Virus record (IMG/VR): IMGVR_UViG_3300029183_000007
Coordinates: 1-50,089 of that record
Length of the DNA: 50,089 nt
Source of the DNA: a virus
Taxonomy: Duplodnaviria; Caudoviricetes
Strand: one strand, 5' to 3'
Under the pieces are notes generated by a model, which was given only the letters and a program-made list of their open reading frames with translations, had not been told where the DNA came from and did not search any database. The stretch's first letter is position 1. Each line of letters starts with the position of its first letter. Shown here one piece after another: positions 435 through 37,246 of the stretch. The translations under genes were made by a program, and so were the position numbers.

Positions 435-875
435 ATGACACAACTCAATCAACAACAACAACTCGACGTCGCAGCCACCAGCGCCATTGTAGTTAACGCA
501 CTCAAAGACGCTGTGGCCGAACAACTCCAAAACTTCGCGGAAGGCACACGACAAATAAATAGCCTGGCCGTGATGACTCAACGGTTCACCCAACAACAAG
601 TCTTTCTCCAAACAACGATGGATCTGTATCTGACACTCAAGCCGACCTACGACCAAGCGAAAGCACTGGACAACAAAGCGATGGTAAAAATGGTCAGCAA
701 CCAACTGAAGACGCTCGAACGTAAAGTCGTCGAAATCGTGGTTGCATCCGACCCCGACACCATGACCGAAGAAATCGCTTCAAGGAGTTTCAAAGAGTCT
801 GTGAAGATGATTGAAAGCAAATCCAAGCCAGTCAACCGCATCGAACCTCAACACGTCAACGGTACACTTTACTAA
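435..875 (+). CDS. Hypothetical early protein (helical)
   Basis: 146-aa ORF, AGGAGG RBS, first gene after the promoter. Confidence 0.8.
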   Translation: MTQLNQQQQLDVAATSAIVVNALKDAVAEQLQNFAEGTRQINSLAVMTQRFTQQQVFLQTTMDLYLTLKPTYDQAKALDNKAMVKMVSNQLKTLERKVVEIVVASDPDTMTEEIASRSFKESVKMIESKSKPVNRIEPQHVNGTLY

Positions 876-877
876 GA

Positions 878-991
878 CTCCTTTCGCCCGTCACTTCGTT
901 GGTGGCGGGCACCCCCTGGTCGATTTTCGTTCTAGCCGAGCGGACATCTGCATAGGATGGCCAGGGGATTTTTCCCTTCACCCCAAAGGAG
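878..991 (+). promoter_or_regulatory. Structured intergenic leader whose closing helix covers the next RBS
   Basis: CTCCTTT (878-884) complements AAAGGAG (985-991); internal stems gcccgtcac/gtggcgggc and cccctgg/ccagggg. Confidence 0.5.
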
Positions 992-997
992 ACACTA

Positions 998-1390
998 GTG
1001 AGTATCAAATCTCTCCAAAAAGACATTGACCGGCTCAAAGAAATTCTGGTGGAGTCCCTGGACTCATCGGAATTCAATGACAAGACTGTCGGTTTTCAAA
1101 TCTCCCTTCTGGAAAATATCGCGGCACTCAAACGAGAAATCGCCGAGCTGCAAGACAGCAAGACCAAGCCAATTCCCGAAACACCCACTCGGTTCGAGTA
1201 CCTCGGCTATCTGTGCGAACGAAAACGAGGAGATTTTTTTGGATGCCGTGGCCGCCCCCGAAGCAAATTTGGCTGGCTATTGACACACATCGAGTCTAGC
1301 AAGGAACATCGTCTCAAGCCCAATAGCAATGGCTCTGTACCCAAATCGTTCGCGAAGACGTATGTTGAAGCTCTTGCTGGGGTACAGTAA
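998..1390 (+). CDS. Hypothetical protein, N-terminal coiled coil
   Basis: 130-aa ORF, GTG start after AAGGAG. Confidence 0.75.
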   Translation: MSIKSLQKDIDRLKEILVESLDSSEFNDKTVGFQISLLENIAALKREIAELQDSKTKPIPETPTRFEYLGYLCERKRGDFFGCRGRPRSKFGWLLTHIESSKEHRLKPNSNGSVPKSFAKTYVEALAGVQ

Positions 1391-1395
1391 TCCAT

Positions 1396-1489
1396 AGGCG
1401 CGACCTCGGCGGTGGTGGAAGTGGTTTGACTGTCGATCTGGGAAGTCGTATTCGCTCCATTTCTGTCGGTTCAATTCCGACCGTGCCTA
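1396..1489 (+). ncRNA. tRNA-like element (acceptor stem plus T-arm; no canonical D or anticodon arms)
   Basis: AGGCGCG (1396-1402) pairs with CGTGCCT (1482-1488), directly after the T-arm GTCGG-TTCAATT-CCGAC (1465-1481). Confidence 0.55.
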
Positions 1490-1568
1490 ATCTCTCCTCC
1501 CAGCCCGTCTTTAACTAGCGATGAAGAAGGTAGTACCTTGGGGGGAGAGTCTTTTCTCAGGAGTGAAA

Positions 1569-1868
1569 ATGGATTTTTACTTAGCTGTTGCGGCCACGTC
1601 TGGTGTGATAGGCTTGGCTTGTTTCCTTCTCGGACGCATAACAGCATCGCCGAGAGAAAACCATCTTCAAGAAACCTTGGTCATTGCGACGAAGATAATT
1701 GAAGACTTTTCACCGTTACGAGAGTCCTGTCTTACTCTGGACGGACTCATTACCAAAATGGAGGAAGAATGTCAGAAATCGCAACCGTACCATCCCACCA
1801 GATGGAAAAGTGGGCAAGACAGCCCAGCATCAGCATCGACAGGCAAATCCATGAAAGCCTCTTGCTAG
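1569..1868 (+). CDS. Hypothetical membrane-anchored protein
   Basis: ATG at 1569 after AGGAG; N-terminal hydrophobic helix; 3' end overlaps recT. Confidence 0.6.
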   Translation: MDFYLAVAATSGVIGLACFLLGRITASPRENHLQETLVIATKIIEDFSPLRESCLTLDGLITKMEEECQKSQPYHPTRWKSGQDSPASASTGKSMKASC

Positions 1869-2596
1869 TGTCCGAGCAGTTCGGCAAGTCGAACATGTTC
1901 GGCAAGAACGCCCACCAGGTGTACACGTCCATGATGATCGGGTATGCCCTTGGGCTTGACCCGATCATGTGTGCTGGCAAGATCCACGTGTTCAGCGGCT
2001 CGTACCAAATCCATTACGTGCTGTTGGCCACGATGATCGAACGCAGCACCAAGTACCAGATTGATGAGGTGATCCGGACGGGAAACCAATGCCAAATCGA
2101 CATTTACAAGAACGAAACGAAAATCGCTAGCGTCGTGTGGGACATGGACAGAGCCTCACGAGCTGGCCTAGCAGGAAAGGACAACTGGAAAAAATACCCC
2201 GAAACGATGCTCTACGCACGAGCTGTGACCGAAGCCGTGAACGTCTACATGCCCGATTTGATCGGAACGCCGGTGTACACCGAAGCGGACAACATCGAAG
2301 TGAGCGTATCGCCTAGCACCAATGGCCAGGCCACCCCATCAACACCAAGCCCGAAGCCCACGGAAACGCCAGCAAGCCCACCCCAGGAAGTGCCGACCAA
2401 TCACCTTGACCGCGTCAAAGCGACTTGGATCAATTTCCGGGACACGTGCGGACTCAACGAATTTGACCGCAACAAGTTTTTCACAGACTTGTGTTCTGAG
2501 CATGAAGTAGGGGACGTCAACTCGATGACTCCGCAGCAAGCCGAAGCCATTATCAAGGCCATCGAAGAAAAGAAAAACGCCCTGGGAAATTCGTAA
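1769..2596 (+). CDS. recT: RecT/Red-beta-like single-strand annealing protein
   Basis: GYALGLDP, RAGLAGKDNWKKYPETMLYARA and PD motifs; Pro/Thr linker, then a small helical C-terminal domain. Confidence 0.8.
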   Translation: MSEIATVPSHQMEKWARQPSISIDRQIHESLLLVSEQFGKSNMFGKNAHQVYTSMMIGYALGLDPIMCAGKIHVFSGSYQIHYVLLATMIERSTKYQIDEVIRTGNQCQIDIYKNETKIASVVWDMDRASRAGLAGKDNWKKYPETMLYARAVTEAVNVYMPDLIGTPVYTEADNIEVSVSPSTNGQATPSTPSPKPTETPASPPQEVPTNHLDRVKATWINFRDTCGLNEFDRNKFFTDLCSEHEVGDVNSMTPQQAEAIIKAIEEKKNALGNS

Positions 2597-2754
2597 AGCC
2601 GTACAGACTAATAGCCCTGGTCGGTGCGACTCCCCTGGCAGAGCTGGACGAAGTCTGTCGGGAATTTTTGGGCTATCCGTTCGTGATGGTCACGGACGAA
2701 AATGAAATCGAAAAGATAATGAAAATTCACAAAAAACTCAATGAAAGCGAATAA
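2584..2754 (+). CDS. Predicted -1 frameshift extension of RecT (54 aa)
   Basis: In-frame slippery heptamer G GGA AAT (2584-2590) one codon before the stop; -1 frame open to TAA 2752-2754. Confidence 0.6.
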   Translation, partial: GKFVKPYRLIALVGATPLAELDEVCREFLGYPFVMVTDENEIEKIMKIHKKLNESE

Positions 2755-2756
2755 CA

Positions 2757-3263
2757 ATGACATTTTCCAAACTCAATGACATGAACCCCGAATCGATGGG
2801 TAAGAACCAACACGGTTTTGAGCGTGCCTCTGATGGTTGGCATTGGGCTACCATCCGTGAACACTCCATCAATGACAAAGGTACATTCGTACTAGTCATG
2901 GAAATCCGTGGCGATCACGACGACGATCAAGGTCTGGAGGTCAAATTCTACATGGCCTCGCCGGAAAACTCCAAAGCGAAAATGCAGGCTCTCAAGCGTA
3001 TCGCAACCTTTTCGATGCAGCTCGGTTGCTACGTCGAAATTGATGACGAAAATTTCGACGTCGATTTTAACAAGTGCGTCGGCAAAGACGTGATTGTCGA
3101 ACTCATTACCAACAACGATTTCCAGACCATCAAAGCTCACCATGCGTTCTTGCTTGACCCGTCGTCCGCTCCCAAAGCGAAACCGATGAGCAAAGAAGCG
3201 AAGCAGTACAAAGACAAATACAAAATCGCGTCCAAGCCGGTTCCCACGAACCCGTTTGAATAA
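2757..3263 (+). CDS. Phage single-stranded DNA-binding-like protein (DUF669-like)
   Basis: GWHWATI...DFNKCVGKDVIVEL pattern, NPFE C-terminus, position directly after recT. Confidence 0.55.
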   Translation: MTFSKLNDMNPESMGKNQHGFERASDGWHWATIREHSINDKGTFVLVMEIRGDHDDDQGLEVKFYMASPENSKAKMQALKRIATFSMQLGCYVEIDDENFDVDFNKCVGKDVIVELITNNDFQTIKAHHAFLLDPSSAPKAKPMSKEAKQYKDKYKIASKPVPTNPFE

Positions 3264-3331: not shown

Positions 3332-5638
3332 ATGAAAGTAATCGAAACCCTAGAGTCCGTGGTCGGTTCACCGCAGAAGGTGATCTACACAAACGAGTGT
3401 GTGGAGAATCCGTTCTCAATCATCGCCATCACCAAAGTGACTGGCCAGGAGTACATCGTCCGGGGGCCAGTCTACTACAACCCTCGCAGCCGGGACAATG
3501 AGTTCCAAATGGGAGTACCCTACGAATTCTTTGGCCGAAAAGAAAACACGCCAGGCTATGGTGAGCAACTCCATTTCCGGTTCCACGCAATGAGTCTCGG
3601 TAGTGATACCGACGCGGGGGCAGCGGTCTACCTGCAACGATTCGAGGGCTTGGGAGCTAAGACCGCGTCCCGACTGGTCAGCCACTACGGGGGACGCGAA
3701 GCTATCGAGCTACTCAAGAACGACCCAGAGAAAGTAATTCGAGACGGCCAGGCCACGCGAAAAGTAGCTGAGGCCACGTCCAAGCAGCTCAGGCTGAACG
3801 AAGAATACACGGACTCGATGCTCGACCTGACCGGGATGCTCGATGGCCACGGATTCCGCAAGGACACTGCCAGGCTATGCCATGAGGCTTGGGGGTCTGC
3901 CGCAGCCGCCCGCGTGCGAGAGAATCCCTTCGTCCTGATGATTGAGGCAATCCAGGGGGCAGGTTACAAGACGTGCGACTCGCTTCACAAATCCCTCAAG
4001 CTCAATCGCAAAGACAAAACCAGGTTGGCACTAGCCGGTTGGTATCACTTGCGGTCGAAGTCTCACGGCTCGGTCTGGCTACCCGCTGGCCAAGTGACCA
4101 AGGCATTTAAGGAAGCTGGCCTATACCAGACCACGGATTCCGTCCCAGCGAAAGACTTGTACCAATACGGCATGAAACACAACATCTTTGCGACGATCAT
4201 GCACAACGATCAGCCACTGGTGGCCGAATACAGTGCGGCTAAATACGAATCCTTGATTGCGGAAAAAATCAACACGATGTTGTCTTGCCAAGAGGACACT
4301 TACTGGCCAAACCCAGCGGACATTGGCGGGCTGTCCAAACACCAGGAGGTCACACTAGAAGAGGCTATGTCCGGACGCGTCGGGATACTCACTGGCACGC
4401 CAGGTACAGGCAAGACGTTCTGTACGGCTCGGCTGATCCAAACCGCTGTCCACCAAGGAATGGAGGTGATGGTGTGCAGTCCGACCGGACGAGCGGCTCA
4501 AAGGCTTAACGAAGCCCTCAAAGAGATTGGTTGCAGTCCGATTGCAAAAACGATTCATTCGTCCATGCGGTATATGTATGAACGCGTCGGTTTGAATCCC
4601 GCCATCCGGTTTGCTCACGACAATGAAAATCCACTCAGTGCGGAGCTGATCATCGTAGATGAGACCTCAATGGTCGAGTCTCAGCTCATGGCTCACCTGC
4701 TCAATGCCGTCCGGCCATCAGCTCACCTGCTGTTTGTCGGTGATGATCAGCAGCTACCACCAGTGGGTAACGGCCATCCGTTCCGGGACATGATACGGTC
4801 AGAACGAATCCCGCTCGGCCAGCTCACCGAGGTTCGCCGCAACTCCGGTGCAATCGTGGAATCGTGCCGACTGATCAGCGAGACCAAACCGCTTTCGCCG
4901 GTGTCAGTGAATGAGCTGCACGAGGAGGCGAACTACGCACACATTGAAATCCAACGACAGAATCAAATCCCAGAGGCCATCAACCAGGTACTCTACTGGT
5001 GTGAGTCTGCTGGGTTTGATCCGGTCGAAGACATGCAATTCATCACGTCGCAAAACAAAAACGGGGAGTTTCCCCGTGAGGCACTAAACAACCTGTTACA
5101 GGAGCGGCTGAACGGCAACAATCCGCACTTGGCCAAGACGGTTGGGTACAAGGTGGACGACAAGGCCATCTGCTTGCGGAATGGGGACTACACGGTCTGT
5201 GCGTACCGTGACGGGGAAGTGACCGACCCGGACAACTATGTCGAGTACAAGGATAAGTCTCGACTGGCAAACGGACAGATTGGATACGTCCGGGCGGTCA
5301 ACGACAAACACACGATCTTTGAATTCGATGGGACGCTTTACAAAGTGTCTAACTACGGGGAAAAGGGTGCGGACAGCCTGTTCTCCTTGGGGTGGGCTGT
5401 TACTGTCCACAAGTTCCAAGGCTCGGAAAGTCCAGTAGTGGTACTATTTCTTGACCCCAAGGCCAGGTTCACCCTGGACAAAAAAGCCCTCTACACAGGC
5501 TTCAGCCGCGGCAAGAAAGCACTCATCACAATCGGGCCACTGTCCGAAGCCCATGCGGCCATGATCCGCACGAGCAACGACAACCGTAAGACGCTGCTAG
5601 TCGAGAAACTGAAAGGAGAGGTGGGCTATGAACTTTAA
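3332..5638 (+). CDS. recD2: RecD2-like SF1B DNA helicase
   Basis: HhH (GLGAKTA), ENPF motif, Walker A GTPGTGKT, IVDETSM, VGDDQQLPPVG, TVHKFQGSE, LYTGFSRGK; AGGAGG RBS before ATG 3332. Confidence 0.92.
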   Translation: MKVIETLESVVGSPQKVIYTNECVENPFSIIAITKVTGQEYIVRGPVYYNPRSRDNEFQMGVPYEFFGRKENTPGYGEQLHFRFHAMSLGSDTDAGAAVYLQRFEGLGAKTASRLVSHYGGREAIELLKNDPEKVIRDGQATRKVAEATSKQLRLNEEYTDSMLDLTGMLDGHGFRKDTARLCHEAWGSAAAARVRENPFVLMIEAIQGAGYKTCDSLHKSLKLNRKDKTRLALAGWYHLRSKSHGSVWLPAGQVTKAFKEAGLYQTTDSVPAKDLYQYGMKHNIFATIMHNDQPLVAEYSAAKYESLIAEKINTMLSCQEDTYWPNPADIGGLSKHQEVTLEEAMSGRVGILTGTPGTGKTFCTARLIQTAVHQGMEVMVCSPTGRAAQRLNEALKEIGCSPIAKTIHSSMRYMYERVGLNPAIRFAHDNENPLSAELIIVDETSMVESQLMAHLLNAVRPSAHLLFVGDDQQLPPVGNGHPFRDMIRSERIPLGQLTEVRRNSGAIVESCRLISETKPLSPVSVNELHEEANYAHIEIQRQNQIPEAINQVLYWCESAGFDPVEDMQFITSQNKNGEFPREALNNLLQERLNGNNPHLAKTVGYKVDDKAICLRNGDYTVCAYRDGEVTDPDNYVEYKDKSRLANGQIGYVRAVNDKHTIFEFDGTLYKVSNYGEKGADSLFSLGWAVTVHKFQGSESPVVVLFLDPKARFTLDKKALYTGFSRGKKALITIGPLSEAHAAMIRTSNDNRKTLLVEKLKGEVGYEL

Positions 5639-6883: not shown

Positions 6884-7329
6884 GAATCCCAACATCACAA
6901 GATTACCCCGCAGAGATACAAGTCCAAGAACACCATATTGCCAAGTCGCTGTTCAAGATGACCAGGGAACACGATCTGCTTTGGGTGATTGCTCCGAAGA
7001 CGACTCTTGACGAGATAACCAATTACACACAAGTCGTATTCAAGGAAGATGGCTTCCTTATGGCTCGTCCGAGAATCAAGTATCTTGATGAAGAGCCCGT
7101 CCCCTGGGTGTGCCTGGCCAACGAAAAGAACTTGCTTGTGTTCGCTGAAAAGGACAATGTGTACATCCTGGTTTGGGGTGAGGTTTGCGGAAGGGATGGA
7201 CAGCCCGCCCCCGAAATGCAAAAAGACCTGCACAACCTGTATCATGCTGCTCGCCAAAGCATTGATGGCGTTCGTGTCCCGCTCTGGCGAGCGCTGACAA
7301 AGACGATGGCGGAGGTGAAAAACTGGTGA
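6880..7329 (+). CDS. Hypothetical protein
   Basis: Coupled overlaps at both ends (ATGA, GTGA). Confidence 0.75.
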   Translation: MRIPTSQDYPAEIQVQEHHIAKSLFKMTREHDLLWVIAPKTTLDEITNYTQVVFKEDGFLMARPRIKYLDEEPVPWVCLANEKNLLVFAEKDNVYILVWGEVCGRDGQPAPEMQKDLHNLYHAARQSIDGVRVPLWRALTKTMAEVKNW

Positions 7330-8084
7330 CGTTCGGTTCTCTCTTTTCAGGCATTGGGGCTATCGATCTTGGGCTAGTCCGGTGTGGCCTCAAGCCCCTG
7401 TTTCAGGTAGAATCCGATGCCTATTGTCAACTCGTTCTCGCGCGACACTGGCCACGCGTGAAGAGATTTAGTGACGTGCGAGACTTCACATCCAAGTCCA
7501 CCAAGCATAGGCCGGATATGCTCTGCGGTGGATTCCCCTGTCAGCCGGTCAGCCAAGCAGGGCAAAGGAAAGGGGCAGATGATGAACGCTGGCTCTGGCC
7601 TGAATTTGACAGAATCATTCGCGAGTTTCGACCGGGATTCGTCCTCTTGGAGAACGTGCCAGCTTTGCTTGGAGCTGATCACGGGAAACTCTTTGGAGGA
7701 GTTCTCCGGGACTTGGCCAGCAGCGGGTATCATGCTCAATGGGGCGTGCTTTCGGCAAGCCAATTTGGTCTACCCCACTTACGGAAACGGGTATTCGTTC
7801 TGGCCTACGCCAATGGCCAGCGATGGACGACGATTCTGGACAAAACCAGAATCATTACTCAACCGCAAGCGATTTCATCCGTGGCATGCCGCACCTGGTT
7901 CTGGAGACCTGGTGACACAAGTTCTGGCCGATCTCGATTGCTACCCCCGGCCAGCTTTCTGCGAAGCCGTGATGAACCTCCCTGCCCACTGGACAGAGAC
8001 CGAATCAAAGCCGTAGGCAATGCGGTGGTTCCTGATTGTGTGATACACATTGTTACAAACTTGAGGAGAGTAATTGATGGTTAG
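7326..8084 (+). CDS. DNA cytosine-5 methyltransferase, large (alpha-like) chain
   Basis: Motif I FSGIG, IV GFPCQ, VI ENV, VIII RKR, X GNAVV; short, with no clear motif IX. Confidence 0.92.
   Translation: MTFGSLFSGIGAIDLGLVRCGLKPLFQVESDAYCQLVLARHWPRVKRFSDVRDFTSKSTKHRPDMLCGGFPCQPVSQAGQRKGADDERWLWPEFDRIIREFRPGFVLLENVPALLGADHGKLFGGVLRDLASSGYHAQWGVLSASQFGLPHLRKRVFVLAYANGQRWTTILDKTRIITQPQAISSVACRTWFWRPGDTSSGRSRLLPPASFLRSRDEPPCPLDRDRIKAVGNAVVPDCVIHIVTNLRRVIDG
7471..8016 (+). CDS. Nested +1-frame ORF: putative small (beta-like) methyltransferase chain
   Basis: 181 codons open inside the MTase gene; WPTPMASDG and a motif IX-like PAFCEAVMNLPAHWT; start position uncertain. Confidence 0.7.
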   Translation: MTCETSHPSPPSIGRICSAVDSPVSRSAKQGKGKGQMMNAGSGLNLTESFASFDRDSSSWRTCQLCLELITGNSLEEFSGTWPAAGIMLNGACFRQANLVYPTYGNGYSFWPTPMASDGRRFWTKPESLLNRKRFHPWHAAPGSGDLVTQVLADLDCYPRPAFCEAVMNLPAHWTETESKP

Positions 8085-11864: not shown

Positions 11865-12971
11865 ATGAGTGACCGCGGACAGCAGGAAATCGACCGATTA
11901 CAAAAGCAGGTTTACAAACGAGTCATGGCCAATCGCAAGTACGATCCTGACCAAGAGCGTCGGCTGAGCTTCCTGAGAGAGACGCATCAAAACTACGTGT
12001 CTGACATGGGAGAGCAGGCTAAAGCTCCGTTTTGGGGTTTCTACCAGAATGCTCCCATCCCCTACCTGTTCGACTCTAAGGAAGATCGAGCCGAAGCCTA
12101 TGGGTCGTGGAGATTGTCTTACCTCAAGTGCATGGAACGGTTTGAAAGTGGCGTTTCCCCGCACTCGGTGGGTACGGGATCGAATCATTTCGGCCTGGGG
12201 TTTGACACCCAATGTCGAATTATGAGCTGTTTACTGCTAGCCCTGATGCGAGAGCTGGACTTCGTAGAGGATGAAGTGGCCAATATGATCAGTCGCAAGA
12301 TGGGTTTTCTGGATGCCGACCGCATCATGCAGGGAAGGCCGATAGCGGACTATTCTATGATCCACGTCCATCGGGCGAACGTGATGGAGAAGAAAGTTTA
12401 CACCCCTGATCAAGTTTACCCGACTTCGCGTGCGTCGGCTGTTGTCATTCCTGGGATCATCAAGTACGGCCAAGATTCCATCGTCTGTTACGTCCCCGTT
12501 GAGTCAGAATTGACCAAGAAAGAGGACGCTAGGCTTGCGAACCTCTTGACGGACATGACGATATTTGTGTGCCACGCTGGCTCGCGTATGACGTTCGATG
12601 TCATGCTTACCAGTCTAGCCAGCTTCACCTATGTCAACGTCCACGAATGCACTTACGCTGAGGAGATTATCCGCGCGACTGGTGGCAAGAGTCTGTTCAG
12701 CTACGTCTTGGACAGGATCATCGACAACAATGGGTTTTGGTCATACATGGGTGGTTCGGAGTTCCGCAAGCCGGTTTGCAACGAACGAACGATACCCTTA
12801 GCCAAGGCGATTTGGGACGGTGAGGACGACTGGTTCGCTCTGCACGATGCACTGGCCGAGGAGTCGGACAACGCTGTTCTCATGGCTTTAGCCGCTGGCC
12901 ACGTCAAGAGTCCACGAACAAGCTGGCTGATACGGGAACTGATCTTGGGAGATAGTGATGGGCAAGGTTAG
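11865..12971 (+). CDS. Hypothetical protein with a C-terminal Gemmataceae-type helical domain
   Basis: C-terminus LAKAIWDGEDDWFALHDALAEE...HVKSPRTSWLIRELILG, paralogous to the next gene. Confidence 0.75.
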   Translation: MSDRGQQEIDRLQKQVYKRVMANRKYDPDQERRLSFLRETHQNYVSDMGEQAKAPFWGFYQNAPIPYLFDSKEDRAEAYGSWRLSYLKCMERFESGVSPHSVGTGSNHFGLGFDTQCRIMSCLLLALMRELDFVEDEVANMISRKMGFLDADRIMQGRPIADYSMIHVHRANVMEKKVYTPDQVYPTSRASAVVIPGIIKYGQDSIVCYVPVESELTKKEDARLANLLTDMTIFVCHAGSRMTFDVMLTSLASFTYVNVHECTYAEEIIRATGGKSLFSYVLDRIIDNNGFWSYMGGSEFRKPVCNERTIPLAKAIWDGEDDWFALHDALAEESDNAVLMALAAGHVKSPRTSWLIRELILGDSDGQG

Positions 12972-14031
12972 CGTTGAAGAAATGCTGGGCAAGTTGGACT
13001 ATCTCAACCAGAAGAACCTGGAGAGAAAGTACGGCACGGACGCAGAAAAAGAGCAGGGGCTTTGTGAGTCGCTGTCCATGCTGGCCAATTTGGACGAGTG
13101 GATGAGCGAACGTTTCGAGACTGACCCCATACCCCATCTGACCAAGTGGATGCCTCATCCCTACTGGAGTCCGGCGAAGAAGAGCTACGTAGGCTACACC
13201 GAGTGGGCAGAGATGATCAGCATTTATCTGAATGGTCGTTGGGGAAATGGTCTTAGAAATCTTAGAAACATGGCAGATGATGGCTACTGTGGGACACTTC
13301 CACGGATGTTCCAGCTTACCGTGCCACAAGTTCAATTCGTGCTGGGTGAAACGCTCTGGCGCAACATGGACAAGTATGTGTGGTTCTCAGACTCTTGCGT
13401 CAGTCGCATCAGGCGATGGAATAAGAAGCGTGGCGTTACCCCTGACCGGACAGTCCCGCAATCGTTCAAGGTGAAATTCAAGTATCGAAATGACAGTATC
13501 GAGCAATTGCCCCATCTGGAGATGGACGAACACATTCTGGAATTCTCCCCGTGGACAATGCACGTTCCGGAGAGTTACGAACTAACCAAGCCGGGCTATA
13601 GTGCTTTAGCCACTTCCGGACTGATTAACATTTGGGCGGATGAGCGAAGGCCAACGACGATGGCCGAGGCTTGGGGCTATCTGTTCAATCGACGCATTCC
13701 GGAGGGTTCTTGGTCAAAGCTAGACGACGAATACCAAGAAACGCTCTGGACGGACTACAGTCAGAACCTTTGGCGCTATTTTGTGTCTGGTCTGTTGTGT
13801 GCGTCCAAGCATTGCCACCTTGGGGAAAACCAGTTTGACGAGAGTCTGCGAACGACGAACACAAAACACATCGCACGAGCCATCCTGAACGGACACAACG
13901 ACTGGTTCGCCTTGCATGATGCGCTGGCTGAAGAAACCGACGATGTACGCTACCTGAGCCACTGCCGGTCGGGTATGTTTCACTATCCCCAATCCTGCTG
14001 GCTGCTGTCAGCACTGACTATGGAGGACTGA
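12955..14031 (+). CDS. Hypothetical protein with a C-terminal Gemmataceae-type helical domain
   Basis: C-terminus IARAILNGHNDWFALHDALAEE...LSHCRSGMFHYPQSCWLLSAL. Confidence 0.75.
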   Translation: MMGKVSVEEMLGKLDYLNQKNLERKYGTDAEKEQGLCESLSMLANLDEWMSERFETDPIPHLTKWMPHPYWSPAKKSYVGYTEWAEMISIYLNGRWGNGLRNLRNMADDGYCGTLPRMFQLTVPQVQFVLGETLWRNMDKYVWFSDSCVSRIRRWNKKRGVTPDRTVPQSFKVKFKYRNDSIEQLPHLEMDEHILEFSPWTMHVPESYELTKPGYSALATSGLINIWADERRPTTMAEAWGYLFNRRIPEGSWSKLDDEYQETLWTDYSQNLWRYFVSGLLCASKHCHLGENQFDESLRTTNTKHIARAILNGHNDWFALHDALAEETDDVRYLSHCRSGMFHYPQSCWLLSALTMED

Positions 14032-16717: not shown

Positions 16718-16795
16718 ACTGGCCTGTTACGCCGCAGGTTGGTTAGGGAGTAGGTTGTTACTGGCCACCTACTCCCGCTTTCGCATGAGGGGAAT

Positions 16796-17146
16796 ATGTC
16801 ACACATCGACGAGAACAAGGCCAGTCCGCTACTGGACAGGCTCGGAACCATCGCGCTAGAATGGGATCAGATACGACGCTACCCGGATAACGCAGCCACC
16901 ATTCTAGCGATGATTCATTTTGTCCCTTTGGACATCCAAATCACCCAGGCCACCAAGGACAACCCGCAGCAAGTCTTGTACACTGGCTACAGCCCGGAAT
17001 TCGAGTTTCGCAAAGTAGATCGGGAAAAGGTTGTCACCTTCAACACCAAGACCGTCCCGTACTATATCCTCAACGTCTTCATGTCCGAGATTGGAACCGT
17101 AGACAAAGTCATCGTAGAAAGAGACAAGAGCCGAAATGCCTTTTGA
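16796..17146 (+). CDS. Hypothetical protein
   Basis: 116-aa ORF, GAGGGGG RBS. Confidence 0.75.
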   Translation: MSHIDENKASPLLDRLGTIALEWDQIRRYPDNAATILAMIHFVPLDIQITQATKDNPQQVLYTGYSPEFEFRKVDREKVVTFNTKTVPYYILNVFMSEIGTVDKVIVERDKSRNAF

Positions 17147-18777: not shown

Positions 18778-19530
18778 ATGGATTACAAGACATTCGAGAA
18801 AGCGATACGCGAGAATCCCAACGACCTGATGGCCAGGCAGGCTTATGGGGACTGGCTTGAAGAGCAGGACGGCGGAAAAGACGCTCTGTTTGCTGCGTAC
18901 ATCAAAGGCAACCATCGGCCACGTCGGGTAAAGAATCCGAAAACTATCCAGTTGCGGGGCGGACGGATTCCAATATCCAGGTACGCGGCGGCCAAAGAAA
19001 TGACCATCTACCACGGTTTTGTAGACGAAATCTGGATACCTGGCGGACGATGGGAGGCAGGATTCGGCTACTGGCAACGTCATGGCGCGGTGAGAACCGT
19101 TCACCTAACCACTAACCCCTCGGTAAGGCTTAACGCCACGTTTGATGGCACGCTGAAAATCGTGTATGGTAGACATTCGCTAAGCCTAACGGTGGCCGAC
19201 TTCCAGGAGGCTTTTGAGATGACGGACACGCACTCCGTGTTCGCAACCAAGGCTCTCTCGCGGATGTGGCCACAGATCACGTGGGATTTACCAGTCGACG
19301 ACAATATCCAAGAGTTGTTCTTTGAAGCGGTGCTGGCTCTGGCCAAGGAGTGGGAAAAGGCCAAGCGCGAGATGACTCAGGAAGAGTACGCGAGAGCCTT
19401 GGACGTCAAACGCCGGTCAATGCACCCCGCATCGTGGAACTTCCTTTCGACTCCGGAAATTGAGGCCATTCTATGCAAGACCCAGACGTCATCCGAGACC
19501 AACCCGGATACAACGCTGACAGCGCCATGA
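18778..19530 (+). CDS. TIGR02996 (repeat-companion) domain protein
   Basis: N-terminal FEKAIRENPNDLMARQAYGDWLEEQ...AAYI, later HGFVDEI. Confidence 0.85.
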   Translation: MDYKTFEKAIRENPNDLMARQAYGDWLEEQDGGKDALFAAYIKGNHRPRRVKNPKTIQLRGGRIPISRYAAAKEMTIYHGFVDEIWIPGGRWEAGFGYWQRHGAVRTVHLTTNPSVRLNATFDGTLKIVYGRHSLSLTVADFQEAFEMTDTHSVFATKALSRMWPQITWDLPVDDNIQELFFEAVLALAKEWEKAKREMTQEEYARALDVKRRSMHPASWNFLSTPEIEAILCKTQTSSETNPDTTLTAP

Positions 19531-22272: not shown

Positions 22273-25200
22273 ATGGTAACGCAGCAATACTTCCAAAGTG
22301 GGCCACAACATCCTCCTGGCCTCATCCCGATTGCGAACTCGAACAACGTCAACGTGTACGAAGTTCCAGCGATTTTGGGGCCAGATGGCAAGCCGATCAT
22401 CAGACCGTATGACGGGTTTGCCGCTCCTCACGTCCTTGGATTCAACGCCATTCTCTCGTCTGGCCATTACGCCTACTATCATGGCCGATGGGACGAAGCC
22501 CGTCGAGACAGTATTGAAAACTCGTTGGCGATGGCGAACGATGCCCACCTGCAAGGCATCATGCAAGAGCGGAAATTGGCTGTTGCGTCCCTGCCGTGGC
22601 ATATCGACGTCCCGAACGAACGTGACCCGTACCAACGACACGTCCGCGACACACTCACCAAAATACTACGCCAGATACACCAGTTTCCCGCGATCCGCTG
22701 GGCATTACTCTCATCGATTTGGTACGGTCGCGCGGCGGTGCAGTTCCGCTACAAGTGGTCATACATCGACGGTCAAAGATGTCTCACGGTTCGCGATTGG
22801 CTCCCGATCAATGGGGACAAACTCGGCTTTACGCATGACCACCAACCCTACACGCTGATGCACTCGGCGGAAATTGATCGTTTAACTGGAGCCACGTACA
22901 TCACAACGACTGCTGGTGGACGTGGCCTAATGTGGATTGGAGATTGGCGTGATCGAATTACCATCAGCCAGCACTACGAACGCGATGACGTGGATTTTTG
23001 GAACCCCGAACAAGCCGGAGCGGTTCATGGTGTCGGAGTCCGATCTAAAATCTATTGGGTGGACTGGCTCCGAAACAATTGGCTCACAAAGGTTACAGAG
23101 TTTCTCGAACGCGCCGGAATGGGTTTGGAACTTTGGTACTACGCCAGCGGAGACACCAAGGCCAAGCAGAGAGTAACTGAAGCGGCGACCAAGAATCGGA
23201 CGCACAAAACACGCGTCATCGTTCCGTGGTTGGAGAGCCAGGGAGACCGTCCGTCAGTAGAAGTTGTGGACGTGCCGATGAACGGTGCGCAGATGCTTGT
23301 CCAACTCATGGAGTACATCGACCGAATCGAAGAGCGATATATCGTCGGCCAGCATATGTCGGCCTCGGCTCAAGCGACTGGTCTAGGCGATGACGGCCAA
23401 GCCGACTTCCAGCGAGACACCAAACAGCAAATTAGAAACGCCGACGCACACCAGCAAGACTCAGCTATCACGGGGACGGAGGAAGAACCGTCACTGCTTT
23501 ACATCCTTCAGAAATACACGTTTCCGGAGTCAGTCCCATCCGAGCAGAACCCAAAGGGATTTCATGCGACGTTCCACCACGATCTAGAAAAACTCGAAAG
23601 TCTCGAACGGTTGGAAGCGGCTCAAATCGTGGTTGGCATGGGCGCTCCGGTCAAACGCGACGATCTGTACGCGGCGTCCGGACTCACCCAGCCCGACGAC
23701 GGGGACGATGTGATTGGTTTTGAGATGGGAGCGGAGTACGCGCAACAGATGGCTCAAGGAGATCCAGGCCAGCAGCAACAGCCAGGCGAAGAAATGGGAC
23801 TTCCGCAAGTGGAAGATGAGGAAGAGTACGAAGAAGGCCAACAGCCGCAAGAGGGGGATTTCTCAGAAGACGACCTCTTGCAGATGTTCGAGCCAGACGA
23901 ATTGGAAGCATTGGGCATCGGTGGCCAGCAGCAACAAGCCGTCCCGTATCGCCAACCCGACCGGATGATTACCTACGATTCTGGCCGTTGGGTGACAATC
24001 GGTGCGAAAGAATCGGACGGGGAAAGCAAGGGCGGTTCGCGCGTGTTCATCAAGGACGGGGTAATCACCAAGGGACATCCCGACCTCACTGGCAAATCCA
24101 TCAACAACATGAAAGGCCAAGCGAAGGGCGAGGCTCCAGGTGTGGCCACCAGGCGAGACAAAGACCACGCGGTGGCCGTCATCCGTAAAGAGGCCAAACG
24201 CAAAGGGATCAATCCGAAAGAACTTGACCAACTGGCCAGCGAACTGATGGCACACGATGACGCTTATGGCAAAGACCGCAATCTCATGCTCAGTTCCGCT
24301 CGAACCATGTCGAAGGGCATGGGCTACGGCGATCTATCGACCATTGCTGCTAGGCACTCACGCGGGCAGATCGATCAAAGCCACGTGACCGGACTCGACG
24401 ACGTGGCGGCTCGGATGCAAGAAAGCTATCCGCACATGTTCCAAACCGAGGACGAACACACTCGCGAGCTGTTTGATATGCTCTTGGCCGGAAACTCTCA
24501 ACGGGCTGACCGGGCGAAAGTCTACGAACAAGCCCTAGAAATCATGGCCTCTGGTGGCGGTAGTCAAATCGAAGATGACGGTGACCCGTTCGGCGAAGTT
24601 CCGTTTTCTGGTGTTGGCCGGATGATCACTTACGAAGGAACGGCGCTCGGGACGGGTAGTAAAAAGACTGGCCTCATGCCATCGACTAGCCAGTCCTCAG
24701 CAAGCGACTTTCCACAGACAATGGAAGAATTCGCACAGCACAAACCCGGCGACAAGTGGCATCCAGTACAGACGAAACGCGGGACTTCAGCTTGGCAGAA
24801 TCCGTACTCCGGTCATGTCCACTATGGCTTGAATGCTCCGCAAGCTGACGCGCACGAACACGCCAGGAAGATGATCGAGAAGCGAAACGCTCCTCCGAAA
24901 TTCGAGCCAACCTACAGCTCTGAACGGTCAGAAGAAAAAACCGGATTCACTAACCAGTTCTTCCCAAAAGGCTCGCACGTGACCAGCTACGCCGAGCTTG
25001 TGGGCGCTCCGAAGGGTATGCAGGGTTATACGGTTCATGGGCGGCGAGTCCCGCATGAAATGCACATCGCGGCGGACGAAGACACACACCACCAGTTCCA
25101 CACGTTCGAGCGGACAGCTAAGATTCTTCCGTCTGGCGATCTGTCGATCTACTCGAATGAAAACCGCGTGCGGGGCAACCAACGAGGTACGGGAGCGGGA

Positions 25201-28089
25201 CTCAACGCGTTTTCTGATCAGGTGCAAAACTCGCACAAACATGGGGTGAAGAACATCACCAATCTGGGCGCGAGGGGGCAAAGCTACGTTGGCTACAAAG
25301 TCTGGCCAAAGTTGGGCTACGATGCTCCGCTCAAGATCGATCAAAAGTTGCAATTGCAGAACTCCAATCTTCCGCATCATGTCAAAATGGCTGAGACCGT
25401 TCTTGACCTCTACAAGTCCAAAGAGGGACAAGAGTGGTGGGCGAAGCATGGCACAGACATGCACTATACGTTCGACCTGCACCCAGACTCGAATTCGATG
25501 CGGACATTGAACGAGTATCGGCAACGCAAAGGACTCGAACCGATTGAAATGCACTCGAAGGAGGACTACGAAAAGCTGGGAGAAGAACACCGCCAACGGA
25601 ATCTGCCTTGGCTCCAAGATCAGTACAAACAGCTTCGCGGCGAAGGAATCGAGGGCATGCTTCCTTGGGACAACCAGATGAGCAGGCATCACAGGGAACG
25701 GCTTTCACACATCGCGGGACAGCACTACGACAACTGGACTCCCGAAGGCCAAGAAGATCACCCGTACAACCAGCACCGATTCTTTTCACGTCCTGGCCGG
25801 TTGCTCAATCGGCAGTACGAAGCAATGAAGTCTATCGTCAATCGGTTCATCGCGAAGGGCGTGCATGAATCGGGGCAATCCACATTTGAGCTGGACGAAA
25901 AAGCTTTGGCCGAATTCGAGAAGCTAGAGCAAGAGCATCTGGACACGCAGTATTTCAAGCCGACCAACGAAGAGATAGCATCGTTTTGGAAGTCGGCCTA
26001 CTGGCGTGCTGGCATAGAAATGCTTGGCACGGAAAAGATGATCGGCTTGATCGGCAAACAGGAAGAAGAATCTCCTCGCAACTACGCGGACGAACCGCAG
26101 CAAACACCAGCTCCAAAAACACTCGGCGGCCATGAGGAACAACCAGCGATTGGAAAAATGCGACACTTTCAGCCAGCAAATCACGAATTCGGCTCGCACG
26201 AACATCACAAAGATGTGGGAAGCGCGAGCAAGACGTACAAACAATTCTTCCCGCATCACAGCGGCCAAGGCTCCATCCAGCACTTTTTGGGCTTGCCGTC
26301 CGGCTCTAAGTCAAAGATGACTGGCCATACACCAGGCGGCGGATTCAATATCAAAGCGACCTCGGATGGTCACATGAGCAAGCATAAAATCCGCAGTGAC
26401 GAAGCGGGACGAATGCACTTGGACAACGTCGTCCACCACGGACGAAACACGCGGGAAGGCCAGCAACAGCTAGTCAACCAACACTTGCTCCAAGTGGTCA
26501 ACGCGCATCACGCGGGATTCCACGCAATCAACGCCCATGTCGGGAGGCAGGGACGGGCAAGCGGAGAGAGTGAATACAAGACACACACTGGCCATAAAGC
26601 ACTGGCTCAGCTTGGCTACGATGCTCCGCTCTCGGAAGAGATCAAGACCGAAGTGGCCGACCGCATGCGGGAGAATCGGTTCACTGACTTGGATTGGAAA
26701 GCCGACACGGTGCAAGACTTGATCAAGACCGATTTGGGTATGGAAATCTACGAGAAGATGGGACATACGCTTCCGCTGAAATTCGACCTGCACCCGGACA
26801 GCAACTCCATGCTGTTCTTCCGGGAATTCTTGCAAGGGCATGGTTTTGACGCGGATAAGCATCTGCCAACCTTGGACAGAGAGACTTACGAATCCCACAA
26901 AAAAGAGGGGATGGAGCGGAACAAGTCCTACGAACCCGACCCGGAAGAGCCGATCCAAAGCAAGTTCTTTTCTCCCTATGCGGCGGGCTATATGGAAGCG
27001 TTTTCTCACCAGAACGACCCGTTCGCCAAGCGAGACGAAAAGGACGAGGGTTACTTTGGGAATCTGCCCGAACAGGTCAGAACGGCCATCATGCAAGGGG
27101 TGGCGGAGAGAGAGCGGACAGGGGACAACTCAGAACTTCTGAACGCGTTTCGTGTCGCGTCGGACATGGCGGACGAAGAAGGCCACGACATCGATTCTCC
27201 GCTCAGGTCGTTCGGCGGCCTTACGTTCCGCGAAATGGTCGAACAGACTGGCCGGACTCGCGATCTTATCGGTGCGGAGAAGTTTGACAGCTCCGACGAC
27301 ATGGACACGTCGGTCTGGATGAATCGGCATGGTGAGGCTGCCCAGCACATGGCGGCGCTGCGGCCAAGTACCTATGAGAAATTTCAGGAAATGCCGCATT
27401 TCGAGGGACTGTCCAAGGACGAAATCTCGCAAGAGATTCTCAGGATGAGCGGTGATGAAGGTGGCCAGATTGAAGAAAACCTCTACGACAGTGACCCATC
27501 GTGGTATTACCACAATCCCAACACCCTCCAAGAACAGGGAGACGACTACAATGACGGTGAAGAATTCAGCATCACCGATTCCCACTCTCCTGGTGGCCGA
27601 CGAATTAAAAAGTTAGACGCGTTCCTCCAGAACGCCAACTATGCAAAAGAAGGGGTGGACGACCGATACTGGAAAGACCGGGTTACGTCGATTGAACACC
27701 ACGCGCGTCGGATGGGGATGAAGGAGATTGAATTCCGCAACATTGGCCCATTTGACGAGAACAGGCAGTTCCGAAAAACGGACAAGAACTTCATCGAAGC
27801 GATGGCGAACGCAGGCTATGACGGAGCGGTTGTCCCAAACATTCCGGCCATTGATGGCCATCCCATCAACATTCTGGAAGCGTTCCCGGACGTGTACAAG
27901 GATTACGATTGGTGGCCAGAAAATGCTCCGACGTTCCGCGACCTGACAAAAGACATAGGATTCTGGGACTGGTTTGAAGATGGCGGCCATGAGTGGCCAG
28001 GGTTTGCGTTCATTAGTTGGAGTAAGCGAGTCAAAGCGTTTCCCAAGCCCAGGGACGAAGAGGAGAGCGGCTTAGAGCCGTTGTGGTAG
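22273..28089 (+). CDS. Portal protein (DUF935/Mu gp29-like, ~aa 1-480) fused to a ~1450-aa cargo region with three GNAT-like repeats
   Basis: Position after terL; DAHLQGIMQERKLAV, SIWYGRA, WxxFLERAG, IVGQ, GLTQPDDGDDV; one continuous ORF; repeated GYDAPL and FDLHPDSNSM. Confidence 0.85.
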   Translation: MVTQQYFQSGPQHPPGLIPIANSNNVNVYEVPAILGPDGKPIIRPYDGFAAPHVLGFNAILSSGHYAYYHGRWDEARRDSIENSLAMANDAHLQGIMQERKLAVASLPWHIDVPNERDPYQRHVRDTLTKILRQIHQFPAIRWALLSSIWYGRAAVQFRYKWSYIDGQRCLTVRDWLPINGDKLGFTHDHQPYTLMHSAEIDRLTGATYITTTAGGRGLMWIGDWRDRITISQHYERDDVDFWNPEQAGAVHGVGVRSKIYWVDWLRNNWLTKVTEFLERAGMGLELWYYASGDTKAKQRVTEAATKNRTHKTRVIVPWLESQGDRPSVEVVDVPMNGAQMLVQLMEYIDRIEERYIVGQHMSASAQATGLGDDGQADFQRDTKQQIRNADAHQQDSAITGTEEEPSLLYILQKYTFPESVPSEQNPKGFHATFHHDLEKLESLERLEAAQIVVGMGAPVKRDDLYAASGLTQPDDGDDVIGFEMGAEYAQQMAQGDPGQQQQPGEEMGLPQVEDEEEYEEGQQPQEGDFSEDDLLQMFEPDELEALGIGGQQQQAVPYRQPDRMITYDSGRWVTIGAKESDGESKGGSRVFIKDGVITKGHPDLTGKSINNMKGQAKGEAPGVATRRDKDHAVAVIRKEAKRKGINPKELDQLASELMAHDDAYGKDRNLMLSSARTMSKGMGYGDLSTIAARHSRGQIDQSHVTGLDDVAARMQESYPHMFQTEDEHTRELFDMLLAGNSQRADRAKVYEQALEIMASGGGSQIEDDGDPFGEVPFSGVGRMITYEGTALGTGSKKTGLMPSTSQSSASDFPQTMEEFAQHKPGDKWHPVQTKRGTSAWQNPYSGHVHYGLNAPQADAHEHARKMIEKRNAPPKFEPTYSSERSEEKTGFTNQFFPKGSHVTSYAELVGAPKGMQGYTVHGRRVPHEMHIAADEDTHHQFHTFERTAKILPSGDLSIYSNENRVRGNQRGTGAGLNAFSDQVQNSHKHGVKNITNLGARGQSYVGYKVWPKLGYDAPLKIDQKLQLQNSNLPHHVKMAETVLDLYKSKEGQEWWAKHGTDMHYTFDLHPDSNSMRTLNEYRQRKGLEPIEMHSKEDYEKLGEEHRQRNLPWLQDQYKQLRGEGIEGMLPWDNQMSRHHRERLSHIAGQHYDNWTPEGQEDHPYNQHRFFSRPGRLLNRQYEAMKSIVNRFIAKGVHESGQSTFELDEKALAEFEKLEQEHLDTQYFKPTNEEIASFWKSAYWRAGIEMLGTEKMIGLIGKQEEESPRNYADEPQQTPAPKTLGGHEEQPAIGKMRHFQPANHEFGSHEHHKDVGSASKTYKQFFPHHSGQGSIQHFLGLPSGSKSKMTGHTPGGGFNIKATSDGHMSKHKIRSDEAGRMHLDNVVHHGRNTREGQQQLVNQHLLQVVNAHHAGFHAINAHVGRQGRASGESEYKTHTGHKALAQLGYDAPLSEEIKTEVADRMRENRFTDLDWKADTVQDLIKTDLGMEIYEKMGHTLPLKFDLHPDSNSMLFFREFLQGHGFDADKHLPTLDRETYESHKKEGMERNKSYEPDPEEPIQSKFFSPYAAGYMEAFSHQNDPFAKRDEKDEGYFGNLPEQVRTAIMQGVAERERTGDNSELLNAFRVASDMADEEGHDIDSPLRSFGGLTFREMVEQTGRTRDLIGAEKFDSSDDMDTSVWMNRHGEAAQHMAALRPSTYEKFQEMPHFEGLSKDEISQEILRMSGDEGGQIEENLYDSDPSWYYHNPNTLQEQGDDYNDGEEFSITDSHSPGGRRIKKLDAFLQNANYAKEGVDDRYWKDRVTSIEHHARRMGMKEIEFRNIGPFDENRQFRKTDKNFIEAMANAGYDGAVVPNIPAIDGHPINILEAFPDVYKDYDWWPENAPTFRDLTKDIGFWDWFEDGGHEWPGFAFISWSKRVKAFPKPRDEEESGLEPLW

Positions 28090-28587
28090 ATGGCCAGGAA
28101 CAAAGTCAAAATGTGGTCTCGGTCTCGTCCGTCGCGGAAGCTCCCCCACTTTCGTTACGGTGGACAGACCGGAGTGGCGAGCCAGGAAGATACCGCACGG
28201 TTTCTCGAAGGGCTGCCCTACGTGGTCGAATCGAGCTGGATTGAATCGATTCAGTATTTCGAGCGACGCGAAGGGCTGCTGATCGTTCTCAAGAGCGGGA
28301 CGGTTTCGAGTTACATTCCGGTCGGCTCTTGGGAAGCTCTCGACTTGGCCACGGCATCAAGTAAGGGAAAATGGATTTGGGATCACATCTACGTGCGTGG
28401 GAAGGGCAACGGAGAGCATAGGCAGAAAACAGTATTTCGGGGCAACGTGTTCACAGATGAGGACGTGGAACTACTCCGAGATGAAGACTTTGAGAACGAA
28501 CTTTTCAAGAGGTACTACTTCGATGACCCAACTCCTCCAAGCAAACCCGACCCAGGATTCTTTAAGCCGGTTTCACGACAAAACTAA
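28090..28587 (+). CDS. KTSC-domain protein
   Basis: VESSWIESIQY...L.I.LKSG...Y..V...L.TASSKGKWIWDHI. Confidence 0.8.
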   Translation: MARNKVKMWSRSRPSRKLPHFRYGGQTGVASQEDTARFLEGLPYVVESSWIESIQYFERREGLLIVLKSGTVSSYIPVGSWEALDLATASSKGKWIWDHIYVRGKGNGEHRQKTVFRGNVFTDEDVELLRDEDFENELFKRYYFDDPTPPSKPDPGFFKPVSRQN

Positions 28588-29896
28588 GTGGAATAGCGTT
28601 TGGGACGGTGTGTACGAAAACGTCCCGGTGTTCCTCGCGCACGAGCGGAAATTCGACGATGAGACGATTGTGGTCGATGAAAAACGTCTGAACAGAATTT
28701 TCGAGAACACGAAACGGATGGAAAACGACCGGGGCGTGATACCTCGCGGACTGCTTGGCTCGCACTCCAAAAAGGACGCGAAGCCAGAGGACAAGCCAAC
28801 GATTGGGAGCTACTACCAGTTCACCCATGTTGGAAATTACGGCAAGGACGAAGTACCATGTATTTTTGCGCGTCAATTCGTGTGCAAGGGGGCGATGGAT
28901 GAAGTAAAGAAATATCCGTTCCGATCATCGGAATACTACGACGGCTCGGACACAATCAAAGCTGTAGCACAACTCAGCGACGATCCCTATTTCGATATGG
29001 GGATGATGCTGTACGGCGATGATGACAACCAAGTCCGGGTTTACAAGCTCAGGTCAATCGGCGAATCCAAAGAGGGAGAGCCACGGCTCTACATGGCCGT
29101 AACGCCAAACACTCCGCCAGTGGCCGGAGAAGGGATTGGGATGGGAATGAGTGGGGCAATGTCCGACCCAACACTCCCACCACGAAACGCAGGGACGACA
29201 ACTTTGGATGAGGGCATCAAAGCTCAGATTGACGCGTACATGCTGCAATTCTTACCACAGCTGGCCGAACAACTTGGCCTGGGTGGGGCGTCGGGAATGG
29301 CGGCGATGGGATCAGCTCCGGGGAGTCCAGAAAGCTACATTCCAGGATTCCTTGGCGGTGACGAAGGAAAAGCAAACTTACCCTATTCTGGAGATCAACC
29401 TATGACTACTCCGAGGCAAGACGACCGAGCGATTGAGCATCAGCAGGAGCTAAATGCACTCAAAGCGCAGTTGGAAGAATCCAACAAAATCAACAGACAG
29501 CTTCTTTACCAATCGGACGAATCCGAAGCCCGACGCGAATTGACGCAGCTCAAAGCGGAAGGCAAATCCGTGTCTATCGAACAAATGCTTCCGCAAGTGA
29601 TGGCTCTTCCGAAAGAGCAACGAGCGGGTTTCTATCAAATGGTTCGCGACAACTTCAAAACCGACCCCGCCGCTCCGGTCACGTATGGCAACGATGGCCA
29701 GCCGGTTCACATGGTACAGACCGAACCGAACAAAGTTCCCGAACCTGGCCAAGGTCATTACTCTTCGCCAGTTGACCGGCTCACAGCGGAAGAATCGGAA
29801 AAATGCCGTAACTACGCACTTCGCCTGCAAGCCCAAGGAAAGATGGTCAGCTACGAAGAAGCGGCTCGCGAATTGTACCCAGCGAAAGTTTTGTAA
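28523..29896 (+). CDS. Prohead protease/scaffold (Mu gpI-like)
   Basis: VPVF.AH, GSH, YPFRSSEY, AVAQL..P, followed by a low-complexity and coiled-coil C-terminus; position before the capsid genes. Confidence 0.8.
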   Translation: MTQLLQANPTQDSLSRFHDKTKWNSVWDGVYENVPVFLAHERKFDDETIVVDEKRLNRIFENTKRMENDRGVIPRGLLGSHSKKDAKPEDKPTIGSYYQFTHVGNYGKDEVPCIFARQFVCKGAMDEVKKYPFRSSEYYDGSDTIKAVAQLSDDPYFDMGMMLYGDDDNQVRVYKLRSIGESKEGEPRLYMAVTPNTPPVAGEGIGMGMSGAMSDPTLPPRNAGTTTLDEGIKAQIDAYMLQFLPQLAEQLGLGGASGMAAMGSAPGSPESYIPGFLGGDEGKANLPYSGDQPMTTPRQDDRAIEHQQELNALKAQLEESNKINRQLLYQSDESEARRELTQLKAEGKSVSIEQMLPQVMALPKEQRAGFYQMVRDNFKTDPAAPVTYGNDGQPVHMVQTEPNKVPEPGQGHYSSPVDRLTAEESEKCRNYALRLQAQGKMVSYEEAARELYPAKVL

Positions 29897-30363: not shown

Positions 30364-30415
30364 CGCCACAGCCTTTCGCGTGTGAGGTCGCAGCTCAAAT
30401 TCCTTTAGAAAGGAG

Positions 30416-31474: not shown

Positions 31475-31480
31475 AAAACA

Positions 31481-31993: not shown

Positions 31994-31994
31994 A

Positions 31995-35039: not shown

Positions 35040-35049
35040 AGGAAAAATC

Positions 35050-35481: not shown

Positions 35482-35488
35482 GGAATAA

Positions 35489-37238: not shown

Positions 37239-37246
37239 TCGAAGGC

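Follow-up and report, generated by a model that had tools for sequence, protein, structure and literature searches.

In the tail chaperone genes of phage lambda (gpG/gpGT), as described in the accessible part of PMC5009743, a phage gene carries an in-phase heptamer near its 3' end and a low-level shift adds a C-terminal domain that lacks an independent start. Likewise, T3/T7 gene 10, Lactobacillus phage A2 and Listeria phages A118/A500 make an abundant short form and a longer form with an extra domain. In dnaX, subunits of two lengths, tau and gamma, are made in a set ratio for an oligomer of DNA metabolism, and in a 'reversed' arrangement tau is the frameshift product and the zero-frame stop of gamma follows directly after the site (PMC5009743, accessible part). 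IS3-family elements combine a low-efficiency G GGA AAN motif with a structure 4-10 nt downstream (available sections of PMC4066793), and pseudoknots stimulate bacterial -1 shifts in some cases (same part of PMC5009743). Among annealases, lambda Red-beta and 80alpha Sak show an annealase core, a flexible linker and a Sak-like three-helix C-domain, an organisation which the protein reported here may share. In Red-beta, the sites at which the C-domain binds the exonuclease and the SSB of the host overlap and are probably exclusive (PMC11611040, available part). No frameshifted annealase was found in the full-text literature searched, which takes in few subscription papers. The words 'recombinase', 'frameshift' and 'recombin' do not occur in the accessible portions of PMC5009743, PMC11611040 and PMC10885494, respectively; the last reports, for joined genes in SEA-PHAGES, 2,397 tail chaperones out of 2,476, the rest being hypothetical.

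We analysed a phage genome of 50,089 bases, called here the window, in which a gene for a RecT-like protein ends on a candidate signal of this kind. We consider that the gene probably undergoes programmed -1 ribosomal frameshifting, which would yield a long form of 328 aa, and put the probability of this reading at about 0.7. Whereas lambda G/GT uses the motif G GGA AAG, the motif here is G GGA AAU, it lies in a recombination gene, and a three-stem pseudoknot is predicted behind it. Unlike the structural extensions, the add-on belongs to a DNA-metabolism gene, is not Ig-like and has no homologue. The differences from dnaX are a phage annealase, a probably weak motif in place of A AAA AAG, no visible SD stimulator and a predicted pseudoknot instead of a hairpin; those from the IS3 family are the lack of a transposase and of an Rfam match and an extra hairpin in loop 3. 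Compared with RecT and Red-beta, a second, predicted frameshift-encoded module stands behind the C-domain, and no exonuclease partner was recognised beside the gene. The recT site was rejected as a tail assembly chaperone site, since it does not lie between tail tube and tape measure genes. Elsewhere in the genome, a gene at 36649-37238, which follows a tail-tube-like ORF (36032-36652, role by position), contains nine A's at 36937-36945, where the -1 frame runs through 99 open codons, lacks a start and scores +16 bits, with no indel in the contigs of two sequencing runs (X1 and X2); by analogy this looks like the usual G/GT tail-chaperone -1 frameshift of the phage.

The RecT-like gene and its genomic setting

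The window is a single contig with a 117-base terminal repeat at 22-138 and 49955-50071 and an identical amplification tag at both ends (1-17 and 50073-50089), which we take to be a SISPA-type primer; because of the repeat and the tags, the genome is probably complete and circular. Matches to portal, scaffold, small terminase and adaptor proteins identified a tailed phage. One protein (18778-19530) passed TIGR02996 with 31.4 bits against a cut-off of 29.05, a family presumably typical of Gemmata-like planctomycetes, so that a planctomycete host is possible, as a lead only. We observed also that the neighbouring unknown proteins 11865-12971 and 12958-14031 have a common terminal motif, DxWFALHDALAEE, and that a C5 DNA methyltransferase ORF (7326-8084) encloses in another frame a 181-aa ORF (7471-8016) matching a different PHROG methyltransferase family (E 6.5e-19), which makes an overlapping gene pair. 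The portal-containing ORF 22273-28089 is very long (1,938 aa), its portal match being confined to residues 87-522. The following features make up the recombination module:

1769..2596, + strand: RecT/Red-beta-like single-strand annealing protein gene, 275 aa, with a strong SD (GGAGGA)
2390..2593, + strand: RecT C-terminal three-helix domain, 68 aa, complete upstream of the slippery site (AF2 model)
2757..3263, + strand: DUF669-like gene, without SD, starting 2 nt past the extension stop
3332..5638, + strand: RecD2-like helicase gene, context of the recombination module

The product of 1769-2596 is RecT-like at the family level, with matches to PHROG RecT-like families (E 3e-8 and 6e-7) and a profile match to Red-beta 7ujl (E 2.6e-4); the Pfam RecT match stayed below the cut-off (16.9 vs 24 bits). 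Forty-four phage records match the protein and many of them carry a RecT-like annotation. From the similarity of its annealing core we assign it to the RecT/Red-beta annealase superfamily, as a putative member, and by analogy with this family it would have annealing activity and oligomerise on DNA. The AF2 model of its C-domain showed three helices (pTM 0.65), and VIA-align placed the C-terminal part of 80alpha Sak at rank 2 (Z 7.2, rmsd 2.5 over 63 residues) and NinB at rank 8 (Z 5.8), values of a middling Z range that is common for helical bundles. Foldseek gave nothing significant for the C-domain, which has relatives among the tails of other RecTs. The zero-frame stop falls directly behind this complete, modelled domain.

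The candidate frameshift site sits in the recombination module, before the DUF669 gene, whose product we presume to have an SSB-like role in phages, and the RecD2 gene. No RecE/YqaJ-type exonuclease was recognised beside recT (435-3263), DUF669 and RecD2 coming next instead, and a match to ERCC4 at 5628 was weak (E 0.17). Many distant RecT relatives have, unlike here, a long overlapping ORF directly downstream.

Slippery heptamer and coding switch at the end of recT

The ORF 1769-2596 terminates with CTG GGA AAT TCG TAA, and the elements around this end are:

2584..2590, + strand: slippery heptamer G GGA AAT (Gly-Asn), in phase
2591..2596, + strand: 6-nt spacer holding the zero-frame stop TAA (2594-2596)
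2590..2754, + strand: -1 frame extension, 54 codons and TAA, coding-like, without usable start

An earlier note on this DNA had pointed to a phased X XXY YYZ heptamer at the end of recT, and G GGA AAT stands at 2584-2590, two codons before the TAA, in phase and inside the overlap of both frames. The -1 frame is free of stops from 2506 to the TAA at 2752-2754 and gives, counted from 2590, the 54 codons and the translation which the note had reported. Its first ATG, GTG or TTG is the TTG at 2668, codon 27 of 54, in agreement with the claim that no such start occurs until halfway. The extension fills, as described, the 160 nt (2597-2756) between the RecT stop and the next ATG, and stops 2 nt ahead of that ATG at 2757. 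The predicted long product has 328 aa and 36.9 kDa, against 275 aa and 30.7 kDa for the short form. In-phase XXXYYYZ heptamers (Y=A/T) occupy 26 of the 15,384 codon positions of the genome, and the chance of meeting an in-phase one is about 0.7% within the last 4 codons and 5% within the overlap of 29 codons. An SD-like 5' stimulator, optional in bacteria, was absent when read by eye (GGAG/GAGG/AGGA, 6-17 nt upstream of the heptamer, following the accessible part of PMC4066793). Transcriptional slippage was rejected, as the runs comprise just three G and three A residues. We discarded the A AAG tetramer further upstream (2569-2572) as an alternative site, with a slightly lower codon crossover score and too great a distance from the pseudoknot described below. 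Another in-phase heptamer, G GGA AAA at 28365, stands by the overlapping ORFs 28090-28587 and 28397-29896; its -1 frame closes after 18 codons, and the second ORF probably has its actual start near 28523.

The coding character of the -1 frame was scored with a codon model for which 37 other ORFs of this phage served as the training set. The region 2590-2751 reached +20.8 bits, exceeding all 595 stop-free off-frame windows and 89% of the 1,860 true-gene windows, and the part of the same frame upstream of the site (2506-2589) scored -10.1 bits; the best codon-score crossover between the frames was at 2585-2591. A second scoring, against base composition, gave +9.7 bits, a value attained by 0.8% of the off-frame windows and, on the minus strand, by 3.4% of 1,621 windows. 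When the bases were shuffled (n=20,000), a 54-codon open frame appeared in 3.2% of cases and no open shuffle matched the coding score. Each half of the extension was coding-like by itself, its score being reached by 121 of 10,732 and by 1 of 5,815 open shuffles, respectively. Among the 13 intergenic gaps of at least 75 nt, the gap of the extension had the highest score (+19.5; runners-up +12.0 and +11.9). The -1 frame is thus coding-like without a regular start of its own, a near-cognate GTA being available, and it is translated now or was so recently. A frameshift, a separate gene and a recent indel would look alike by the coding score alone.

The earlier note had asked for a read check for an indel. 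Contigs of runs X1 and X2 cross the site without substitution or gap, at a depth of 509 and 206, respectively; both runs come from one aquatic-metagenome study, possibly the source of the window, and are not independent of it. Over the 19.9 kb of 30,000-49,900 these contigs showed no indel. An assembly or amplification artefact, or mere chance, could be thought of for a random-amplified library in which the reverse complement of the tag has 8 bases in common with the site (2582-2589) and in which one X1 contig and the window disagree at 8 bases near 35103-35112. We regard it as extremely unlikely: the contigs of the two runs are identical to the window across the site, eight such 8-mer tag matches exist inside the genome, so that one is not rare, and an artefact would build neither the pseudoknot nor the coding score.

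Predicted pseudoknot and alternative origins of the -1 frame

Short-window folding gave a hairpin that begins 6-9 nt past the heptamer and whose loop of 7 nt (2611-2617) matches the reverse complement of 2670-2676 exactly. The resulting prediction is an H-type, three-stem pseudoknot in which two loops are 1 nt long each and loop 3 contains a third stem, separated from the heptamer by a spacer of 6 nt:

2597..2631, + strand: predicted pseudoknot stem 1, 11 pairs with two 1x1 mismatches
2611..2617, + strand: loop of stem 1, predicted 5' strand of stem 2, AUAGCCC
2634..2662, + strand: predicted stem 3 hairpin, 11 pairs, within loop 3, the centroid structure of the region
2670..2676, + strand: predicted 3' strand of stem 2, GGGCUAU, 7 Watson-Crick pairs to the loop

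The structure was evaluated with an ad hoc score (made up of the stacking in stems 1 and 2, the fold of loop 3 and a constant penalty), and this model was written after the structure had been seen, so that the frequencies that follow are optimistic and overstate certainty. No other position sampled on the plus strand (n=16,630) or on the minus strand (n=5,548) reached the score of the site, -36.1, and the score of stems 1 and 2 alone was reached at 30 and 10 of them, respectively. Upon synonymous resampling of the -1 frame the full score was reached in 0 of 3,000 cases and the core score in 3; in dinucleotide shuffles the counts were 1 of 3,000 and 10. The best score at the other 25 in-phase heptamers and the neighbouring A-run position 36941 was -15.9, and the G/GT-like site of the phage showed no comparable structure in the same model. 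The ViennaRNA nested minimum for the pseudoknot span was -28.4, on a scale that is not comparable with the ad hoc energies. Ordinary nested folding was unremarkable: the 90-nt fold had a z of -0.61 and other windows ranged from +0.46 to -2.46, so the stem singled out in the earlier note (agccctg...cagagct) was not notable in itself, a window with a similar stem giving +0.23. The Rfam search of the region returned 2 chance matches and no real family. The predicted pseudoknot would thus be a 3' RNA stimulator within 4-10 nt past the motif, under our ad hoc model. The second-best pseudoknot-like score of the genome (-34.1) was found at 16745-16825, over a gap, an SD and the ATG at 16796, with no slippery site seen near it; this modelled structure could be a translational control element.

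The extension may instead be a separate small gene of 53 aa (MKPYRLIALVG...), read from GTA 2593 as a near-cognate or recently mutated GTG start. This GTA overlaps the RecT stop as GTAA, six phage genes use a 4-nt ATGA/GTGA overlap, and a weak SD-like GGGA (-4.2 kcal/mol) lies upstream. AGA, CTA and ATA cluster in the first codons after it, and the phage genes use these codons somewhat more often among their first ten than elsewhere (15/500 vs 230/13,301). Such a gene would account equally for the coding score. However, GTA is not a normal start codon, the opening of the region around 2593 costs 14.8 kcal/mol, above 40 of 42 real starts even with the pseudoknot not yet counted, and neither the phased heptamer nor a pseudoknot 6 nt behind it is explained. 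We therefore judge a separate gene to be improbable.

A natural, recent loss of one base in the G/A runs may also have split a gene of 328 aa, the extension being its undecayed remnant with no purposeful shift. Short runs are indel-prone and resemble slippery sites, and this loss also predicts a coding switch at the heptamer. It could be tolerable, the short product retaining the whole C-domain; the population looks clonal in runs X1 and X2, and some RecT relatives have long, multi-domain tails. What this origin does not give is a reason for the best-scoring pseudoknot of the genome 6 nt past the site, a structure that synonymous resampling almost never recreates, and no in-frame long relative was found in the protein searches. 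We rate it as quite unlikely. A strong predicted structure, a phased heptamer and a coding switch at one point are hard to get together under the other explanations, and a programmed -1 shift would account for all of them. That part of the reading in the earlier note is supported by the heptamer, the coding switch at 2585-2591 and the predicted pseudoknot; its second part, a second C-domain resembling that of RecT, is not supported.

Predicted long form, relatives and possible function

Under the frameshift reading, GGA would occupy the P site and AAU the A site of a ribosome held up by the pseudoknot, which begins 6 nt further on; the two tRNAs, tRNA-Gly and tRNA-Asn, would re-pair on GGG and AAA, and translation would resume as ...ALGN-FVKPYR... 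until the TAA at 2752. The phage would then make mostly the 275-aa RecT and a minority of the 328-aa form with a C-terminal add-on of 54 residues. In the accessible part of PMC4066793, all but three of 64 heptamers (61) give more than background shifting when combined with the IS3 pseudoknot, and G_GG.A_AA.U is absent from the three named failing heptamers. According to the same text, ZZN codons mixing purine and pyrimidine such as AAU shift less than all-purine ones, IS elements commonly carry low-efficiency motifs such as G_GG.A_AA.C, and stimulators begin 4-10 nt past the motif. The AAU-based motif is therefore probably a weak one in bacteria, and we expect little shifting, probably a few percent at most, since AAU shifts poorly in E. 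coli.

The add-on was searched widely. It had no homologue among 1.84 billion representatives, no counterpart inside longer proteins (36 candidates), no family in Pfam, PHROG or NCBIfam, only matches under 0.9 in Atlas and nothing under E 0.2 among PDB sequences, and the fold searches gave no confident match (best Z 3.6). An AlphaFold2 model made without alignment, a weak one (pTM 0.43), showed two helices (16-27 and 37-53), against three in the modelled RecT C-domain. The earlier note had seen in the extension a likeness to the last domain of RecT, and BLASTP gave no alignment between them; on a profile of six RecT C-domain sequences the extension scored -1.3 bits, a value that 553 of 2,000 shuffles equalled. 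Because the extension aligns neither to the C-domain nor to the six-domain profile, the likeness is unsupported beyond a by-eye helix-loop-helix resemblance. The predicted long form retains the whole first C-domain and adds a module behind it, which is no swap of tails, and the 'different partner-binding tails' of the same note are something that we can only infer.

Close relatives were not available for comparison in these searches, which may leave out records very near the window. The nearest RecT relatives are 25-38% identical, over the core only; the RecT protein search gave 13 matches besides itself, 28-36% identical except for one short match at 53%, and the DUF669 protein search returned itself only. 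Scans of viral contigs with DUF669, the extension, RecD2 and a 526-aa ORF found no relatives. Three loci from a metagenome scan with the extension were rejected as short chance matches inside unrelated long ORFs. Two loci with an exact 18-base pattern and one with the heptamer-plus-stem-2 pattern were unrelated. A survey of distant RecT genes collected 87 loci, of which 4 run off the end, and merging of duplicates left 74 distinct ends. None of the 74 had a heptamer together with a start-less -1 frame of at least 25 codons, and a heptamer in the -1 overlap occurred in 2, where the frame continued just 9 and 20 codons past the stop. In genome searches within the phylum of locus L046, Pfam RecT was detected in 13 of 301 genomes and RecT alignment matches in 8 of 401, none of them close, and two small classes gave RecT relatives in 0 of 4 and 0 of 2 genomes. 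The heptamer was absent from the 13 Pfam-RecT loci of one phylum (0/13) and from the 4 new complete ends (0/4) among the 8 alignment-found loci, L147 and L151, which run off their loci, having been dropped and L146 and L152 being duplicates of L046 and L144. From these comparisons, the signal appears not to be general to this RecT subfamily. Because the tails and neighbours of those genes are unrelated, its absence from distant RecTs is weak evidence against a frameshift.

The shift could also be real and purely regulatory, delivering a fixed share of ribosomes to the SD-less DUF669 start, or acting on mRNA fate, with the 54 residues as a mere carrier. This explanation agrees with the best one on the frameshift itself and differs in purpose alone. 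The extension stop lies 2 nt before ATG 2757, whose SD score (-1.8 kcal/mol) is that of the coupled genes of the phage, and the extension lacks a homologue or a confident fold. Set against this are the gene-like codon use across both halves of the extension and the DUF669 start region, the most open among the 42 starts tested; we hold a regulatory purpose alone to be very improbable. Within the frameshift reading with a functional add-on, shifted ribosomes, stopping 2 nt before the DUF669 gene, may still help to start it; the coupling argument is weak, and coupling is not needed because this start is so open.

If the shift takes place, the proposal that long subunits carry an extra small protein-binding module is the reading that we prefer for the tail, a tentative one, drawn by analogy, to which we give slightly less than even odds. 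As annealases oligomerise on DNA, a few long subunits per oligomer would act as a set-ratio adaptor, like dnaX or gpG/gpGT. Since the partner sites of Red-beta overlap, a second module on minority subunits would make sense as a putative purpose. A broader and rather doubtful idea is that phage annealases form an overlooked, repeatedly evolved class of frameshift-recoded genes, in which, in this phage, a virus-style three-stem pseudoknot sets the share of long RecT with its homologue-free partner module, mixed oligomers solve the one-site hand-off of Red-beta and shifted ribosomes meter the SSB-like gene.

These proposals come from a single genome and are predicted from its sequence. Phage -1 shifts are so far known mostly from structural genes, and a recombinase case, if true, would carry recoding into DNA repair. 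A compact natural stimulator of the pseudoknot type would at the same time be gained for bacteria. If the reading is true, libraries of recombineering annealases whose clones end at the first stop codon may lack a native long form, and this form may affect partner or host specificity.
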